Positions 32,189-42,888 of a stretch of DNA of 64,000 nucleotides are shown one piece after another. The notes beneath the pieces were generated by a model that was not told where the DNA came from, did not search any database, and saw only the letters and a program-made list of their open reading frames with translations. The translations under genes and the position numbers were made by a program. How positions within the stretch are numbered: the stretch's first letter is position 1; each line of letters begins with the position of its first letter. The stretch covers positions 1,419,353 through 1,483,352 of the forward strand of contig CAWEMM010000006.1 in NCBI GenBank assembly GCA_963810095.1, read 5' to 3'. This DNA is from an uncultured Chloroflexia bacterium (lineage in GTDB: Bacteria; Chloroflexota; Anaerolineae; CG2-30-64-16).

Positions 32189-34164
32189 TCAGTTCGATCG
32201 GGCGTCCCACATGGCTTCTCGGGTCAGGGGCAGGAGCCCCACGGCCTTGCCGTCGACATCGGTCAGAGTCAGCAGCCAGCCGGTTCCGGTATCGTGTGCG
32301 GCGAGGATCTGGCTCTCGGACACCCACCGCGGGCCAACGATGCTCGTTGCGTTTGCAAGCCGCGCCGGCTCGCGGCCAGGCGCACCGGCGAATATCTGGA
32401 AATTATCCTGGTAAATGAACTCGTTTCCCTGAGGCGACCAGCTGATGAATTCGCCCTGGTTTGTCGACGCGTAGAGCTCAGATTGGGTGCCATCAGCCTT
32501 CGCCAGGTACAACTCCTTTGTCGCCAGCGTATCGTCAGTCCACCGAGTGTATGCCATCGCGTTGCCAACCGGCGACCAATAGACCTCCGACGCATCGACC
32601 TGGCCGGCTTCCTTGGCGTCGCCGTTGGCCGTCACCCGGTACAGCTTCGTCCCGTTTGGCGGCACAGGCGTCCCGTAGTCTGCTGTCGGGATAGCGACCC
32701 AAGCTTGCTTGCCGTCGGGCGCCCAGACAACCTGGTTGTCGTAGCCGTTCTTCCCCGGGCTGGCCGGGAAGGTCAGCACCGTCTTGCTCTTCCCGTCTTT
32801 TGCGTCCACAAGGTTCAGGGTGCCTTCGGGGTTTTCCACGGTGCCGTACTGCAGGACCAGGTACTGCTTACCGTCCGGCGAAAAATAGGGCCGCCACGCC
32901 GCGCCCAACTCGCCGACACGCCGCAGCTTGCCCGTCTCAACATCGACTTGCCAAACCTCGGTCTTGACCTGCAGCGAGGTCTGGGGGTCGGGGACCACCG
33001 CCATCGTGACGGTGAGCGTGTTCGGTTCCGCGCCCCAGCGCGTGTCGCTGATTGCCCGCCGCACGTAGCCCGTGGGTAGTCCCTCGGTTGGCAGCTTGTT
33101 GTCGTCGAGCAGCAGCTTGGGCTGGCCGCCTTCCCAGCGGACCGCCCATACTTGCAGGCCCTGCTCGGCGTAGATCCGATAGACGACCCAACGCTGGTTC
33201 GGCGAGAGCTGGGGCGTGTTGATGCCGCGGCCCTGCACGAGCTGGCGCAGCCCGCCGTCCCGGTCGATGGCCCACAAGGCGTTCAGGTCCGAATACGCCA
33301 TGCGCACGCCCGGGGGCAGCGCTTCGGCCAGCGGCCGGCCGGGCGGGGTTGCCTCGGGCGTCAGGAACTCGGGCGGAATGCCGACCGGCGACGACGGCCC
33401 GCCGCCGCCGCGACCCATCGCGGCCGCACCCATTTCCGGAGCAGCTGCGGCAGCGGCCGCACCTGCCGCCCCGATGCCGGGCGTCTCGGTCGCAGGCGCG
33501 GCCTTGGCCATCAGCGGCGCTTCGACGGTGGGTGAAGGCTCAGGTTGGGCCGGAGTCGCAGCGGGCGCGGGCGCCGGTGCAACGTCCGCCGCTGCATCGG
33601 TGGGCGGGGCAGACATCAGGGCGGGCTGGGGCGCCTCGGTTGCAGCCGGCGGCGCGTTTTCCGCGCTCGACTGGGCTGCGGACGCGGCGGCTGCGGCGGG
33701 AGGCGCTTCAGTGGGGGCGGCGGCAGAAACCGGCTGCGTCTCCGCGAGTTGTGCGACGGGCGCTGGGCTTGGGACCGCGCGGGCGACAGTCTGCGGCGGG
33801 TTCCACGGCGCCTTGTCCGGCTCGCAGCAGGCTGAAGGCGACGAACGCAACCACCAGGACGGCCGCGACCGCGCCGAGGCCGCGCGCGAGCCCGCCCATC
33901 CAGCCGGGCGAGGCGGCGGGCCGGCGAATGCCGACCTGTGCCTCTGAGAGTGTGAATGCGCGAGGCACCGCGACGCGAGGCAGGGTTTGCAGCAGGTACA
34001 CGGTGCGGCGCAGGCTGTCCAGCTCTGCCGCGGCACTCCATGCACTGCTGCAGGTGCGCGTCGATGTACGCTCGCTCGGCCGGCGCAGCCTGTTGATCCA
34101 GGTACGCGGAAAGCTGCTCGACCTGGACGTGGCCCCGGACCGGGCCTCCGAAAAGTGATTTCAT
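32189..34164 (-). CDS. anti-sigma factor: zf-HC2 domain, TM helix, Pro/Ala-rich linker and WD40-like/TolB-type beta-propeller; two apparent frameshifts (about 34010 and 33805)
   Basis: HLQQCMEC zinc-finger in ORF 33616..34248, TM in ORF 33708..34001, propeller-like C-terminal 400 aa in ORF 32189..34045; directly downstream of ECF sigma gene. Confidence 0.55.
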
Positions 34165-34320
34165 GGAAAACTCACGACCAAAAAGAATACAAACTGTAGC
34201 ATGCGCCAGGTTGGCGACGAGTGGGGAGCGGGTAGAGCAGTTGCCCACCGCCTTGGGCCGCTCCGCCTGGCCTCCGGCCTCGCCGGCGCCTCACCAGCCG
34301 TGCTGGTGCCCGCTCTTATG

Positions 34321-34999
34321 CTAACTGTCAGTGAGACGGTAGCTTGCGGGCAAAAGTTCCTGGTGCTCCAGGAGCAGGTCGCGCACCTTGGCGCGCGCGC
34401 GAGAGCCGCGATTTGACGGTGCCCAGCGCCGCACCGGTCGCATCGGCGATCTCCTGGTAGTCCAGGCCCTCGACATCAGACAGCACGAGTGCGGTGCGCT
34501 GGTCGGGGGGCAGCTGGCTGATCGCCGCCTGGATGGCGACGGCCAGCTCCTGGCGCATCGCATGATCCTCGGGGCGCTCGCCGCCGTCGATCAGCCGGGA
34601 GTCGTACTCGGGATCGTCCTCGTCCTCTTCGCTTTCGAGCGGAGTGGTGGGCCGGCGCTTGCGTGCGCGCAGCGCGTCGTAGCAGGTGTTGGTAACGATC
34701 CGTAGCACCCACGACTTGAACGAGCCCCCGCGGTACTGGCCGAGCCGTTGATAGGCTTTAATGAAGGCGTCCTGCGTGGCGTCTGCCGCAAGGTCGGCAT
34801 CGTTTGTGAGCCGGTACGCGATGTTGTAGGCCAGGCTCTGATAATGGAGGATCAGTTGGTTAAATGCCGGAAGGTCGCCGCGCTGGGCCGCGGCCAGCAG
34901 TGCGGCTTCGTCGTATTCCTGCCGTCCGGGTCCGCGGCCGCGCGGACCGCCCGGCCACGCGTCGTGGTAGCCCTCGTCGCGCACCGATGTGGTCAGCAC
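34321..34999 (-). CDS. ECF-type RNA polymerase sigma-70 factor; apparent indel near 34390 in a GCGCGCGCGCG run affecting the last ~20 codons
   Basis: Region 2 and region 4 motifs (ILHYQSLAYNIAYRL, DYQEIADATGAALGTVKSRLSRAR); alternative C-terminus LSRARAKVRDLL in ORF 34321..34563. Confidence 0.7.
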
Positions 35000-35232
35000 G
35001 ACGAAAGATGCCCTGGCGGGCCAGGCTAACGCCTGCCACAGCCAGGCTGGCGCTCCTATGATATTCCGGGCCAGATCCGTTCGCGCCACGCTCGGGAATC
35101 CGGCCTAAAAAGCTCAGACATTCACCCCACCAGTTACCACAACATGCTGCAATGGGTGCTGCAGACTGCCGGCACTCGCCCGCAATTCACATCACCGGGA
35201 AAGCCGTGATCAGTTACAAGACGAACAAACTT

Positions 35233-35262
35233 GACCTAAGCACTGCGTTAGATTATACTCTG
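35233..35262 (+). promoter_or_regulatory. sigma-70-like promoter (TTGACC-17-TATACT) for tRNA-Leu
   Basis: Consensus-like -35/-10 with 17-bp spacer ~35 bp upstream of the tRNA. Confidence 0.45.
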
Positions 35263-35298: not shown

Positions 35299-35381
35299 GC
35301 CGAAGTGGCGGAACGGTAGACGCGACGGTCTCAAACACCGTTGGGGGTTGCCCCATGTGGGTTCGATTCCCACCTTCGGCA
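35299..35381 (+). tRNA. tRNA-Leu (anticodon CAA)
   Basis: Cloverleaf: acceptor GCCGAAG/CTTCGGC, anticodon stem ACGGT/ACCGT with loop CUCAAAC, long variable arm, T-arm GGTTCGATTCC. Confidence 0.85.
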
Positions 35382-35677
35382 CTTCTGATCCCGTCCGGGT
35401 GCTTTTACACCCGCGACGCCCTCGCTTTCTTCTTTTGTCCTGTTTGTTGCGAGGGACCTTGCCCTTCGTGTGAGCCGCAGTTGCCAGCGCAATTGCTCAT
35501 TGCACGTGCGGCGCCATTATAGCAGTCTTGCGGGTTCGGAAGCAAAGGCTGCGTCCCAAAATCTCAAACGGGGATCTGTCCCAGATGCATGACGCTTCGG
35601 GCAGAGCGTCTGAACCGTCCTGCATAGACCACAGGACGCAAAGGGCGCAAAGCCCTGATTCCCTGCGCGAAAGCCAC

Positions 35678-37009
35678 ATGACAACACACCACCGTCACAT
35701 CCGCGGCCCCCAAGGCCAGCGGCCGGTTCCATTCCGCTTGGTTACGTTCCTCGTGCTGATTGTGCTTGCTCTGCTGGCCGCTGCTTGCGGCGGGCGTGGC
35801 GCCTCCGGCACTTCGGAGAGCCGCGACGTGTCACTGCGCCAGATCGCGGCCCAGTACGCGCAGACGGGCGATCTTCAGCAGGCGCAAACGGCGCTCGACA
35901 AGCTCAATCTGGCCAATCCGGGCCAACTGCTGTTGGCCCTCGGCGAGTCGGACATGAGTGCTGGCGCCCCACGGGATGACGTGCAGGCCGTCGCGAACCT
36001 GGCCGGCGCCCTCGGCGCACGCAGCCAGAAGCTGGTGGCCTACTTGGCGCCGCCGGCGAGCGCCGCGCCGACGAAAGATGCAGGCGCGCCACTGGCAGTG
36101 GAAACCGTCTTGGCGGTCACCCTCGAGGCGCCGACCGTCGCTCCGTCGCCCACTGCTCCACCGCCGACGGCCGCCCCTACGGCGACCGCCGAACCTGCGA
36201 CCGCGACCTCGGCCCCGCCGACGAATAGTCCGACGCCCGAGCCACAGAACCCGCGGGTGGTGGCGAGCAGCGACGTGAACCTGCGCGGCGGCCCCGGCAA
36301 GGCGTATCCCGTCGTGGCACGGCTGCGCAACGGCCAGGAAGTCGCCATCGTCGGCCGCAATGCCTCAGGCGACTGGTGGCAGCTCGAGATGCCCGGCGTC
36401 AAGCAGGCTTGGGTAGCGGGCACCGTGGTCAAGGTGCTTGGGGCCATCGACACGGTCAAAGTGGCCCAGAACATCCCGCCCGTGCCCACCGCTGCACCCC
36501 GACCCACGGCTGCGCCGCAGCCACCGGCCGCCGCAGCACCTGCGCCTGCGCCTGCCCCTTCCGGACCGCATTTCACGCTCGTTGGGCGCCGCCTGTGGAC
36601 GGTCGAGGAAACCGGCGGCGTGGTGGCCGGGGGCCTGTCGGTTAACTGCGGCGGCCAGCACACGCTGCACGTCTATGTCAAAGACGCCGCCGGCAACCTG
36701 CTGAACGGCGTGACCATTAAGGAGACGGGCGGGGTGCAACAGGAGTTAGTGTCGGGCAGCAAGGGGCCTGGCATGGCCGAGTACGATCTGTACCCTCCGG
36801 GCAAGGACGTGGCCATCGCACGGGACGCGGATGGTCGCCAGGCAACGAGCGATACGGGCGCTGCGCCGAGTGTTGTCACTGCCATCCCATTTGATATTCT
36901 ACGCAGTGGGCACTATTGTACGTCTGATGACGACTGCGCTCATCTGGTACGGGAGAACGGCTGCACCGGTCATTACTCGTGGGACCTGGTTTTCCAGCGC
37001 AACTATTAG
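35678..37009 (+). CDS. secreted/membrane-anchored protein with SH3b domain and conserved C-terminal domain of unknown function
   Basis: Signal/TM segment, PT-rich linkers, SH3b-like VNLRGGPGKAYPVVARLRNGQEVAIVGR...WWQL; C-terminal domain GSKGPGMAEY...SWDLVFQRNY shared with next gene. Confidence 0.6.
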   Translation: MTTHHRHIRGPQGQRPVPFRLVTFLVLIVLALLAAACGGRGASGTSESRDVSLRQIAAQYAQTGDLQQAQTALDKLNLANPGQLLLALGESDMSAGAPRDDVQAVANLAGALGARSQKLVAYLAPPASAAPTKDAGAPLAVETVLAVTLEAPTVAPSPTAPPPTAAPTATAEPATATSAPPTNSPTPEPQNPRVVASSDVNLRGGPGKAYPVVARLRNGQEVAIVGRNASGDWWQLEMPGVKQAWVAGTVVKVLGAIDTVKVAQNIPPVPTAAPRPTAAPQPPAAAAPAPAPAPSGPHFTLVGRRLWTVEETGGVVAGGLSVNCGGQHTLHVYVKDAAGNLLNGVTIKETGGVQQELVSGSKGPGMAEYDLYPPGKDVAIARDADGRQATSDTGAAPSVVTAIPFDILRSGHYCTSDDDCAHLVRENGCTGHYSWDLVFQRNY

Positions 37010-37068
37010 CGCACCTACTGATGCCGAGCTGCGCTGACGTGTGTCTCGGCAGACAGGGAGATTAGCCT

Positions 37069-38812
37069 GTGAAAGAATCCATGATGGAAAACACCCCGCT
37101 CTTCTCGGTGCTCACCGAGGAGCAGCGGTCAGTCATCGCAGACCGCATGACGGAGGAAAAGCGCCGGGCGGGCGAGATCATCTACCAGCAAGGCCGGCCC
37201 GCGGGGGCGCTGTTCCTGATTCGCTCGGGCTGGGCGCGGCTCCTGAGCGACCAGATGGGCGTGCTCAGCAACGTGGGCGCCGGTTCGCTGCTGGGCGAGA
37301 CCGACCTGATCCTGGGCCGGGCCTACAGCGTATCGGCCGAGGCCGCCTCTGACGTGTCGCTCTGGGCGCTGCGCGAGGCTGATCTCAAGGTGATTTTCCA
37401 GGAGCAGCCGGCCATCGCGCGTGCGCTGAAGGTGGCGATGGGCGTCAGCGAGGACCAGACGCTGGAGCGGCACCTGCGGAAGCTCGAGATCATGCAGGGG
37501 CTGAGCGCGGCCGACCTGCACGATATCGCGGCGCATCTGCGACCCGAGCGCTTTGTCGCGGGCCAGACGATCTACCGCCAGGGCACGGATGGCGAGTCGA
37601 TGTACCTGATCGACGAGGGCCAGGTGCAGCTGACGGGCACGTCGGGCCTCGTCGCCAGCGTGGGGCCGGGCGACGAGTTCGGCGACGGCGCGTTTCTGAC
37701 GGGCGAGCCCCGCAGCGTGACCGCAATCGCACTGACCGATGTCATCGCCTGGTCGTTCGGCCGGGCCGACTTCGAGCAACTGGCGCTGCGCTACCCGATC
37801 ATGGCGCTCAATCTCAGCCGGGGCGTCTCACGGCGCCTGCGCGAACGCAACCTGCGGGGCGCGGCAGTGGTTTCCGCGGCAGTGCCGCCACCGCCTTCGC
37901 CTGCAGTCACGACCGCGGAGACGGCCGGGGCCCTCACCGCGCTCTATAAGGCATCGACGACCCCCAAAGCCTCCTGGTGGAGCCAGAGCAGCTACGGGCG
38001 CGAAGATCCGCCTGGTGGCCGTGGTGGTCCTCCTGCTCTGGGTGCTGGGCGCCGCTGCGGTTGCGGTCATCAACTCGCTTGTGTCGCAGAACACGGGCGT
38101 CAGCCGGACGGCCCCCATGGCCGCCGGCTTCCAGGAGCGGGCGGTCCTCGTCGCCCTCGCCGCCGACCTGCCGGTCGACATGACGGCCACCTATACACCG
38201 TGGCCCACCGAGACGCCGCTGCCCACGCCGACCTTCACGCCGACGGCAACGCCGACCAACACGCCCATCCCGACGGCCACGTTTACCCCAATGCCGACCG
38301 ACACCCCGGTGCCGCCGACCAAGACGCCTGTGCCGACGCGCGTGCCGGTCAAGGCGGTTGCCCGTGCCGCGGCTGCGCCGGTGGCCGCCGCTGCGCCGGC
38401 CGTCCAAGCGGCAAAGGCCGTTGCCGCACCGAGCGTGCAGTTCAGCCTGGCCGAGATGCGCCACCTCACGCCTTGTGAGAACCACGGCATGCACAATATC
38501 TTCGTCAAGATTGTGGATGCCGGCGGCAACCCCGTCGACGGCGTAACCCTGGCGCAGACCCCCAAGGGGGAATACGGGAATGCCGTGGATCGGCAGGTGA
38601 CCGGTTCCAAGGGCCCGGGCATGGCCGAGTTCGTGATGTGGAAGGGTGCGGAGTATTCCGTGTACATCACCGGGGATGGCGCAAATCCGGGCAACACCGA
38701 TATCGCATCGGGCCTGCATCCCAACTTCCCGGACGAGCCATCGGCCGAGTGTCCCATGGGCAACACGCTATTCCACAATTCCTGGAGCGTGGTGTTCCGC
38801 AAGAACTTCTAG
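37069..38812 (+). CDS. tandem cyclic-nucleotide-binding (cNMP) domains / TM helix / PT linker / conserved C-terminal extracellular domain; apparent frameshift near 37980
   Basis: Two cNMP-binding domains in ORF 37069..38478 frame; TM plus PTPTFTPTATPT linker plus domain GSKGPGMAEF...SWSVVFRKNF in ORF 37739..38812 frame. Confidence 0.6.
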
Positions 38813-40391: not shown

Positions 40392-42888
40392 ATGCCGCCA
40401 TTGGTGAAAGCAACCGCCGCCACGCTAAGCGCCACCCTGACCGGCGTTGGTCGCGCCCGCCGGCCCACGCTGAAAGGCCATCTGCGACTCCCCGAGTTGA
40501 GCGGCCCGGTCGAGGTCTTTCGGGATGCGTGGGGGGTGCCCCATCTCTACGCCGGCAGCGCGGCGGATCTCTGTTTCGCGCAGGGCTTTGTCCATGCCCA
40601 GGACCGGCTTTGGCAGATGGATTTCCAGCGCCGCCTCGTCGCCGGCCGGCTGGCCGAGGTATTGGGGCCGGCGGTGGTGGGCGTGGACCGCAGCCTGCGG
40701 GTGCTCGGCATGTACCGGGTGGCAGAGGCGGAGGTAAGCCTCCTGAGCGCGGAGGCGCGGCGAGAGGCTGAGGCCTACGCCTCGGGCGTCAACGCGGCCA
40801 TCGAACGGCAGCCGCTGCCGGTCGAGTTCACCTTGCTGCGCTACCGGCCTTACCCTTGGCGAGCGGCGGACTCGCTGTGCTGGGCGAAGATGATGTCATG
40901 GGCGCTGTCGGTCAACTGGGAGAGCGAGCTGCTGCGCGCGAGGCTGATCGAAGTGCTGGGCGTAGAGCGGGCCGCGCAGCTCGAGCCGCTGCTGGCAAGC
41001 CCGATTGTAACGGGGGGCGAGCGGCGTCCCGCGCACCCCTACGGGCCGCTGCCGCCGCGGAATGCGGCGCAAGGACGTGAAGGGGCCGCTCAAGCCGACA
41101 GCGCACCAGAAATCCACATGCCTTCCACGCCGGGCACCCCCGGCAGCAATAACTGGGTCATTGCTGGCGCGCACACGGCCAGCGGCAAGCCCCTTCTGGC
41201 GAACGATATGCACCTGTTGGTCTCCGCGCCGGCCATCTGGTACGAGAACCACCTTGTCTGCACCGATCCCGGCAGCCCGGTCGACGTCACCGGCGTTTCA
41301 TTTCCCGGGATTCCTTTTGTGGTCGCCGGGCATAATGACCGCGTGGCCTGGGGCTTTACCAACGGCTTCCCCGACGTGCAGGACCTGTTTGTCGAGCACC
41401 TCCGCCGGACCGAGCGCGGGGTGGAGTACGAGCACCGGGGCCAATGGCTGCCCGCCGAGGTGCGGCGGGAGGAAATCCGGGTCAAGGGCGAGGCCGCGGT
41501 AACGGAAGAAGTCATCGTCACGGTCCACGGGCCGGTCATCAACCGGCTGGCGGTGGGACTGGCGATGCAGCCCGGCGCGGACGGTCTGCCTGAGCAGCCG
41601 CTCGCGTTGTGCTGGACCTCGCTGACGCCCCACCCAATGGTGGAGTCGCTGCGGGCCATGAACCGGGCGAGTTCGTGCGCCGAGTTCCGGGAAGCCTTGC
41701 GCGGCTGGGTCGCGCCGACCCAGAACGTGGTCTATGCGGACACGGACGGCAACATCGGCTACACCTTCGCCGGTCGAGTGCCGATCCGCCCGCGGGGCGA
41801 AGGCCGCGTGCCCGCGCCGGGCTGGACCGGCGAGTATGACTGGGCAGGCTGGATTCCTTTTGAGGAATTGCCGCACCAACAGAACCCGGCCGAGGGCTAC
41901 ATCGTGTCGGCCAACAACCAGCCGGTCGACGAGAGTTATCCGTACTTCATCGGGCGGGAGTTTGCCCTGGGCGACCGGGCCGGCCGGATTGCCGAGCTCA
42001 TCCGCTCGGGTTCCGCCATCAAGCCGAGCGACATCCGGATCATGCAGCTGGACCAGGAGGCGTCGTCGCTGAAGCGGCTCGCGAGTGTCTTGGGCGGGCT
42101 GGAGCCCTCCGAGCCGGAGCTGCGGGGCTTGGTGACCCTGGTCAGGGCATGGGACGGCCGGCTGACGGCGGAAACCCCTGCGGGCACGATCTGCGAGATC
42201 AGCGGCCCGCGAGGTGCAGATGCTGGTGATGAGGGCCGTGTTGGGCGAAGCCGGCGTTAGCGTGACGCCTGAGAACCCGATTCCCCTCGTCGAACGGGTG
42301 TTGGGTCGCGGGCCCACCCCTGGGATCCAGGACTTTAGCGCTTTCTATCACCGAGTTTGGGAGTGGCTGTACTCGGTGTTGGAGGAGCCGGCGTCGGAGT
42401 GGTGGGATCTGGGGGGCGGCGAGACGCGCGACGACGTGCTGCTGGTTGCGCTCCGGCGCACCTACGACTACCTCGCCGACCGACTGGGCCAGCCTGACCT
42501 GCCCGGCTACGCACAATGGGCGTGGGGCCGGCTTCATACCGTGACGTTCGGGCACGTTGCCGGGCAGGCCCCCACGGTGGCGCGCCATTTCAATCGCGGC
42601 CCGTACCCGGTCGGTGGAGATGAAAACACGGTGTTTGCGACCGGCGGCGGTGTGACCCCCGAAGCCAGCCGGGCCGTGGTCGCGCCGCCCTTCCGCTTCA
42701 TCGCGGACCTGTCCGACTTGTCGCGCTGCTACGGCTTGCTGGCCCCGGGCAACTCGGGGCGACCTGACAGCCCGCACTATGATGACCAGGTTGAGGCGTG
42801 GTTCAAGGGAAAGTATCATCCGATGCTGTACAAGCGGGAGGATGTGGAGCGGGGCGCCCGGCGCAAGCTCATTTTGGCGCCGGCATAG
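40392..42888 (+). CDS. penicillin amidase / penicillin acylase family (Ntn hydrolase, S45); apparent frameshift near 42200
   Basis: SNNWVIAG nucleophile motif and family-typical N-terminal region; C-terminal 220 aa in ORF 42214..42888 frame. Confidence 0.75.

Follow-up and report, generated by a model that had tools for sequence, protein, structure and literature searches.

A tandem cyclic-nucleotide-binding membrane protein and a neighbouring predicted lipoprotein share a C-terminal domain in a conserved gene module of Chloroflexota

The analysed DNA, called the window below, is a stretch of 64,000 nucleotides from an uncultured Chloroflexia bacterium (assembly GCA_963810095.1, contig CAWEMM010000006.1, positions 1,419,353 to 1,483,352 of the forward strand). 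Two adjacent genes, A and B, encode proteins that end in the same domain, named Cdom here. Protein A, a predicted lipoprotein, combines a helical domain and an SH3b domain with a Cdom paralogous to that of B. In its family, B is one protein: two or four cytoplasmic cyclic-nucleotide-binding (CNB) domains are followed by a linker, a transmembrane (TM) helix, a Thr/Pro stalk and a C-terminal Cdom. The window copy of B carries a 1-nt insertion which, by comparison with homologues, is most probably an assembly error. A and B are members of a conserved Chloroflexota module together with an anti-sigma factor, an extracytoplasmic function (ECF) sigma factor and a tRNA-Leu(CAA). This module is widespread, tightly conserved and uncharacterised. 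From its sequences, a mechanism that links cyclic nucleoside monophosphates (cNMPs) to the cell surface is plausible. Genes A and B comprise the following parts.

35678 to 37009, + strand: gene A, 443 aa, from the open reading frame (ORF) and its translation; lipoprotein-type signal aa 1-37 (cleavage Cys 37), helical domain aa 50-124, Pro/Thr/Ala linker, SH3b aa 192-255, Pro/Ala linker and Cdom.
36563 to 37006, + strand: Cdom, A-type copy, ~148 aa with four conserved Cys; profile match E=1.4e-51.
37069 to 37992, + strand: 5' part of gene B, frame 1, GTG start; tandem CNB domains, Ala/Pro-rich linker and a juxtamembrane motif ending in ...SWWSQSS.
~37093-37443 and ~37483-37854, + strand: CNB1 and CNB2, two stretches matching Pfam cNMP_binding.
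37993, + strand: the extra T, which moves gene B from frame 1 to frame 2, located by three-frame translation and DNA alignment with the related locus L003.
37994 to 38812, + strand: 3' part of gene B, frame 2; TM helix 38006-38083, short helix, Thr/Pro stalk 38165-38350, Ala-rich spacer, Cdom and stop.
38429 to 38809, + strand: B-type Cdom of 127 aa, containing two conserved Cys; no other part of B is as well conserved.

A sequence-only reading had proposed that the C-terminal regions of the two proteins align, that each follows a Pro/Thr/Ala-rich linker and that the upstream protein adds an SH3b domain. All three proposals hold. The regions share 30% identity over 123 residues (BLASTP, E=3e-13), and the motifs quoted by that reading recur in both as SGSKGPGMAEY/F, V(K)xVDAxGN..(N/D)GVT and H(Y/N)SWxxVF(Q/R)(R/K)N(Y/F). 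When 55 A-type and B-type copies were combined into a profile, it matched the 64-kb window exactly twice (E=1e-51 and 4e-42).

The same reading had described two CNB domains fused via a TM segment to the shared domain. The domains are real and the fusion is the rule among relatives; in the window it appears only after one T is removed, a point absent from that reading. The interval 37069-38812 is not a single ORF there, and two overlapping ORFs in different frames make up gene B. The frame 1 ORF (37069 to 38478) opens with VKESMMENTPLF, encodes the two CNB domains and continues as out-of-frame nonsense rich in Arg, Gly and Pro. The frame 2 ORF (37739 to 38812, stop at 38810-38812) is nonsense up to ...TGAKIRLVAVVVLLLWVLGAAAVAVINSLV, followed by the Thr/Pro-rich segment and Cdom. 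The junction joins SWWSQSS of frame 1 to TGAKIRLV of frame 2. DNA alignment with L003, the closest intact relative and a product of the same sampling project, located one surplus T at 37993 (agcagc-T-acgggc). Without it, B aligns end to end with its homologues, and the two closest relatives are 81% and 79% identical.

Other explanations of the two frames were considered. A separate start of the TM-Cdom half would have to use the ATG at 37739, deep in the cNMP gene in the other frame, or GTG codons inside the TM helix; these are the only in-frame starts, and a frameshift is favoured. Programmed frameshifting was ruled out because the intact homologues all read straight through. A search with the 127-aa domain alone suggested that the cNMP part and Cdom are separate genes, as it returned 22 short fragments and no cNMP domains. 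This result is attributed to the sensitivity of the word index and to fragmented gene calls in error-prone contigs.

The assignment of the break to an assembly error is based on frame breaks in other window genes and in sister contigs, together with the intact homologues. At least four other genes within 15 kb change frame in comparison to L003, a 77-96% identical relative (tblastn): a penicillin amidase (~42206-42214), an ABC1 kinase (~44911), the ECF sigma factor (~34380-34413) and the anti-sigma factor (~33700-34170). Sister contigs of the same project have different breaks in the same genes. Alternatively, the frameshift could be real. B would then be a pseudogene or would give rise to soluble tandem CNB domains that end in a nonsense tail, while an anchored Cdom protein would be missing, and the fusion would be inoperative in this strain. 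The extra T indeed lies outside any homopolymer, and the protein collection contains an exact match for A but no full-length B of this genome. Given the four frame-shifted neighbours, the differently broken sister assemblies and the end-to-end alignment of the remainder of B, a real frameshift is quite improbable. The indel density of the assembly seems to be roughly one per few kb. With indels seemingly so frequent, other split genes of the window should be distrusted.

Homologues of B were searched with the reconstruction joining frames 1 and 2 at a cutoff of E<=1e-20. At least 279 were found; the best 120 are nearly all 550-620 aa long and all carry PF00027. Many span the query from 1 to 580, with identities of up to 79%. 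The junction is conserved as SWWS(Q/R)SSTGAK(I/L)RL(V/I)AV in an alignment of 14 sequences, and conservation is strong in both the juxtamembrane motif and the TM helix. Related loci containing both cNMP part and Cdom number 72, and 65 of them encode the cNMP part, the TM helix and Cdom in one unbroken ORF. At least four of the seven broken loci stem from the same long-read project for metagenome-assembled genomes (MAGs). About half of the related species, for example those of loci L021, L022 (Ca. Amarolinea aalborgensis) and L055 (CP059258), have a longer B (~860-900 aa), in which four CNB domains precede an unchanged succession of TM helix, stalk and Cdom.

AlphaFold2, supplied with 100 homologues, was used to model P0024, which is the closest intact orthologue at 79% identity. 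Two CNB domains form residues 1-264 with a predicted local distance difference test score (pLDDT) above 90. Residues 266-306 are disordered. A 31-residue helix (313-343) covers the sole hydrophobic segment and is followed by a short helix, a disordered Thr/Pro stalk (370-458) and Cdom (463-585, pLDDT ~90). The predicted template modelling score (pTM) of 0.41 is as expected for independent modules. Across the family, the Ala/Pro linker between the CNB domains and the TM helix is disordered and variable in length. The stalk, at 38165-38350 in the window, reads TYTPWPTETP(I/L)PTPTFTPTATPT with periodic aromatics; it is nearly invariant in 100 orthologues, above the level of the cNMP-binding domains, which sets it apart from ordinary low complexity. 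The 'linker' segment TYTPWPTETPIPTPTFTPTATPT is nearly invariant in 100 orthologues. Although predicted to be disordered, the conserved stalk could be glycosylated, span the wall as a rod or serve in recognition.

B of the window has one hydrophobic segment, modelled as a helix in P0024, and a variant of B lacking a TM helix is not supported. The CNB module has no signal peptide and the Cdom of A lies behind a lipoprotein-type signal, which suggests that Cdom is outside the cytoplasm in both proteins. For B, a single-pass N-in/C-out topology is likely, because CNB domains act in the cytoplasm, the single TM helix is directly preceded by Lys and Arg, the paralogous Cdom of A lies behind such a signal and the conserved Cys pairs fit the outside. 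Both Cdoms would then stand outside the membrane on long tethers.

Cyclic nucleotide binding is suggested by the N-terminal module. Pfam cNMP_binding (PF00027) matches B twice (E=4.5e-37), with 126.3 bits against a cutoff of 27.5, and the tandem CNB domains match PKG and PKA-R among PDB sequences (E=1e-24). In HMMER alignments to these two proteins, CNB2 keeps the phosphate-binding cassette G-E...R-S/T as FG(E/D)GAFLTGEPRSVTA. From this conservation, each CNB pair probably has one nucleotide-binding site of the usual type, CNB2. The sequence-only reading of a cNMP-responsive membrane protein which presents the surface domain of its neighbour is supported for the family as far as the architecture is concerned; the responsiveness stays presumptive, with the canonical Arg kept in CNB2 only.

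Cdom had been called uncharacterised, and databases agree. It is not represented by a model in Pfam or NCBIfam; the best Pfam match was Ig_DR_A0283-like (E=0.13), and Cna_B did not match. On one Cdom homologue, Big_1 reached E=9e-4, below the cutoff. PDB sequences gave nothing significant with the Cdom profile, the best being 8boz_B 'Lipoprotein' with E=0.074 over 31 residues. An AlphaFold2 model from the family alignment was confident (pLDDT 92.3, pTM 0.87) and yielded a compact all-beta domain, not a low-complexity region. It has the seven strands of a prealbumin-like beta-sandwich, with carboxypeptidase-regulatory domains and transthyretin as fold relatives. According to the model, Cdom is an unannotated family of the known, functionally uninformative prealbumin/CnaB-like fold. 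What sets it apart are ~40 extra residues, conserved Cys (a pair, or four in the A-type) and a terminal strand GNTLFHNSF / CxGHYSW. The position of the CnaB isopeptide Lys in the first strand is occupied by Ser in the window and by Lys in some homologues only.

Foldseek matched Cdom to minimal intradiol dioxygenase domains. The best PDB structure was 4ilt, the secreted domain of SACTE_2871 (E=6e-4, TM-score 0.39). Alignments of both Cdom subfamilies have invariant or nearly invariant His, Glu, Asp, Arg and Lys residues. Cdom might on these grounds act as a small enzyme outside the cell, such as a metal-dependent oxygenase akin to the intradiol dioxygenases. The Fe(III) ligands of these enzymes are Tyr, Tyr, His and His, including an H-x-H motif. 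Neither the H-x-H motif nor the Tyr/Tyr/His/His pattern is evident in the Cdom alignments, which leaves Cdom outside the intradiol dioxygenase family and makes an enzyme of this kind highly unlikely.

The domain is frequent. An exhaustive profile search matched 1113 cluster representatives at E<=1e-3, of which 360 reached E<=1e-10. Cdom was at the extreme C-terminus in all but one single-match hit among 150 representatives listed. Pfam partner domains in 120 representatives were SH3_3 (66), cNMP_binding (5), FHA (1), TPR (a few), AAA_35 (1) and Laminin_B (1). The inspected proteins mostly start with a lipobox-like signal or a hydrophobic anchor, and those read fully have Thr/Pro linkers before Cdom. 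In P0338, a protein from outside the window found by the profile search, a cytoplasmic FHA domain is followed by a single TM helix, a Thr/Pro linker and an A-type Cdom. The existence of this FHA-TM-Cdom protein indicates that fusions of Cdom across one TM helix with a cytoplasmic signalling domain arose more than once.

Conservation differs along B and between the two proteins. The Cdom of B has a median identity of 57% to the window copy, versus 37% for the CNB region, and the value for Cdom is higher in 61 of 73 loci. Conservation of Cdom above the CNB part points to a functional constraint on the extracellular end of B, as for specific binding. The comparison argues for a specific, constrained function of this Cdom beyond that of a mere spacer. 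The Cdom of A varies far more: its median identity is 34%, and several subtypes can be distinguished.

These data also bear on the view that Cdom is an anchor to wall or sheath, perhaps carbohydrate-binding. B would then be a tether between membrane and wall, with CNB domains that act locally in the cytoplasm and no signal across the membrane. The large number of cluster representatives (~1113), the C-terminal position and the preceding Thr/Pro linkers resemble carbohydrate-binding modules. The fold class, SCOP b.3, includes starch-binding and adhesin domains, and Cdom has a conserved Cys pair and aromatic residues. We consider the anchor unlikely all the same: the kinds of N-terminal partner are few, with SH3b proteins making up 66 of 120, no carbohydrate-binding module family matched by sequence, and the A-B pair is fixed in 59 of 60 loci, which is more specific than a generic anchor needs.

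Gene A is a single clean ORF in the window. SH3_3 (PF08239) matches aa 198-248 of its protein with E=3.1e-7 and 30.9 bits, above the cutoff of 27. An exact match, P0143, and 324 homologues were found, and PF08239 is precomputed for all 120 homologues listed. Protein A has one hydrophobic segment. Its putative lipobox, ...LALLAAAC-GG, deviates from the expected L-[AS]-[GA]-C by an Ala at -3. A lipobox-like pattern was present in 70 of 112 homologues.

Three further features of the window complete the module.

32189 to 34248, - strand: anti-sigma factor with zf-HC2 N-terminus, TM helix, Pro/Ala-rich linker and C-terminal beta-propeller; in several frames in the window.
34324 to 35089, - strand: ECF-type sigma factor, divergent from tRNA-A-B, with Pfam Sigma70_r2 and r4_2; frameshifted near the 3' end.
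35299 to 35382, + strand: tRNA-Leu(CAA), directly upstream of gene A (ARAGORN; Rfam RF00005, 60 bits).

Synteny was scanned with one genome per species, and the distribution across Chloroflexi proposed for examination by the sequence-only reading was obtained as 79 loci, all titled as Chloroflexota-lineage MAGs. They belong to Anaerolineae, Anaerolineales, Caldilineales/Caldilineae, 'Chloroflexia' and Ca. Amarolinea. The gene order is nearly invariant, with fpg, anti-sigma and ECF sigma on one strand and tRNA-Leu(CAA), A and B on the other. An acyl-CoA dehydrogenase and a penicillin amidase often follow downstream of B. A gene with an A-type Cdom lies at most 400 bp directly upstream of B in 59 of 60 loci (SH3b detectable in 52 of 60). 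Sigma and anti-sigma factors were present in 46 of 47 loci, and the tRNA in 41 of 42. In the window, A and B are separated by 59 bp in which no terminator-like site was found, and GGGAG precedes the GTG start of B.

The sigma factor consists of regions 2 and 4 only, as is typical for ECF sigma factors, and scored 116.7 bits with TIGR02937 against a cutoff of 42.9 (NCBIfam). It is most similar to the models of SigM, SigE, RpoE and SigW, i.e., envelope-stress sigma factors. An apparently conserved N-terminal extension of ~60-70 aa with the motif ...RDDGWG... precedes region 2 in the window (34984-35089, - strand) and in related loci. L003 proteins with zf-HC2 and propeller domains served as tblastn queries to locate the anti-sigma factor, which gene calls and Pfam in L001-L003 support. 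In related loci, it combines zf-HC2 and a TM helix, often with a beta-propeller.

Expression signals were sought by dyad enumeration in 41 intergenic regions. It recovered only a sigma-70-type promoter of the tRNA and the CATTATAGCAG box. The tRNA promoter, TTGAC(G/C)-N17/18-TATACT, is located at 35231-35259 and conserved in 34 of 41 loci. A nearly universal CATTATA(G/C) box lies between tRNA and A (~35480-35600); the box of the window is GCCATTATAGCAG at ~35518-35530. In many loci, it is accompanied by an inverted repeat, CCCATGTG ... CACATGGG, ~60 nt apart, and then CCAAAG. L025 has a double compensatory change. The spacer between tRNA and A yielded no convincing RNA structure (RNAalifold -0.3 kcal/mol), and Rfam matched the tRNA only. 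The box could be the -10 box and operator of an A-B promoter, or a processing site.

What does the module do? We tentatively favour, at less than even confidence, a model in which intact B is a cNMP receptor with a purely extracellular output that is coupled via clustering to the engagement of Cdom. A rigid, piston-type relay is unlikely because long disordered linkers flank the TM helix on both sides. Instead, a cyclic nucleotide at the canonical site of CNB2 would change the self-association or clustering of the cytoplasmic module. Altered clustering would alter the valency of the B Cdoms towards a wall-associated partner. This partner could be the Cdom of lipoprotein A, which may hold peptidoglycan via its SH3b domain, or an envelope ligand common to both Cdoms. 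The module would thus link the second-messenger state of the cell to the organisation of its envelope, alongside the adjacent sigma/anti-sigma pair of the envelope-stress type. In its widest form, the proposal reads that cAMP or cGMP sets the clustering of a surface beta-sandwich paired with a peptidoglycan-bound lipoprotein, within a four-protein envelope-signalling module, and that these are the first cNMP receptors with a solely extracellular output. This wide form is doubtful.

Several observations weigh against the favoured model. Contact between A and B is putative, and visual comparison of the A-type and B-type subtypes of Cdom gave no obvious one-to-one match. The fold of Cdom is generic and used by stalks, adhesins, enzymes and carbohydrate binders. 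CNB1, GETDLILGRAYSVSA, has a nearly invariant Tyr at the position of the phosphate-binding Arg (GRAYSVSAEA), so that only one site of each CNB pair probably binds nucleotide in the conventional way; in CNB2 of the window, Asp takes the position of the family's Glu. A crude positive-inside count of the charges flanking the TM helix gave 34 of 88 homologues, which does not decide the orientation. No promoter of the ECF type was found in the search of the 41 intergenic regions, neither before A nor before the sigma gene. The putative regulatory link of A-B to the sigma factor is therefore one of synteny.

The neighbourhood also allows the opposite direction of signalling. Cdom would read an envelope signal from outside, and cleavage or clustering would free or activate the tandem CNB module for a cytoplasmic partner. 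B shares the single-pass N-in/C-out layout with the neighbouring zf-HC2 anti-sigma factor, and the linkage to the ECF sigma/anti-sigma pair in 46 of 47 loci, the strong conservation of juxtamembrane motif and TM helix and the FHA-TM-Cdom protein fit such a signal. Yet Pfam and NCBIfam detected no anti-sigma, DNA-binding or enzymatic domain in B that a released fragment could use, and the neighbourhood lacks a conserved protease gene. Outside-in or proteolytic signalling is improbable on this balance, and the cNMP receptor with extracellular output stays our working model.

Bacterial cNMP receptors are known as transcription factors, gates of channels and transporters and regulators of enzymes. 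If the model is true, B adds inside-out control of the cell surface. The module occurs in filamentous Anaerolineae and Caldilineales of sludge, digesters and soil, mostly uncultured bacteria whose envelope biology is almost unknown. The analysis defined an unannotated surface-domain family of more than 1000 clusters, which, if the assignment is true, is a dedicated C-terminal surface family in Chloroflexota. It also flagged the assembly for frequent indel errors that split genes.

The sequence-only reading did not recognise the architecture of B, and a full-text literature search found no description of it. Its parts can be compared with known systems. B is a bona fide CNB-domain protein, neither a CRP-family regulator nor a PKA-R-like subunit. 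The regulatory subunit of PKA and PKG have two consecutive CNB domains like B, and PKG and PKA RI-alpha are the best PDB matches, with both domains aligned (E ~1e-24). Unlike these, B has no kinase, no docking or inhibitor segment and no gene for a soluble partner, has Tyr for Arg in CNB1, and carries a TM helix and an extracellular domain. With CRP/FNR, B shares the CNB domain with its C-terminal helix, but the similarity to CRP is weak (25 bits against a cutoff of 266, NCBIfam). Pfam and NCBIfam found no helix-turn-helix family in B, and linker and TM helix follow the CNB domains instead. The JGI name 'CRP-like cAMP-binding protein' is misleading for a membrane-anchored protein with an extracellular C-terminus and no helix-turn-helix, and is corrected here.

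Bacterial membrane proteins with CNB domains include MloK1 and SthK channels, MscS-type bCNG channels and CNB-fused ABC and MFS transporters; they are polytopic, and the CNB domain gates a pore. Like the MloK1-type channels, B has cytoplasmic CNB domains on a membrane protein, and the CNB domain of MloK1 was among its PDB matches. Unlike channels and transporters, B forms no pore; a single TM helix crosses the membrane, and the one folded part besides the CNB domains is extracellular. LapD, a c-di-GMP receptor, is a functional analogue at most: a cytoplasmic second-messenger receptor with a periplasmic or extracellular output onto a co-encoded envelope protein. Its HAMP-GGDEF-EAL architecture is unrelated to CNB domains, and its relay through a rigid HAMP domain differs from the disordered linkers on both membrane sides of B. 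The CnaB, transthyretin and carboxypeptidase-regulatory domains of SCOP b.3 share 10-20% identity with Cdom, which has ~40 extra residues and no sequence match in Pfam or PDB. New are the architectural variant of cNMP receptors and the family within the prealbumin/CnaB-like fold; the fold itself was already known.

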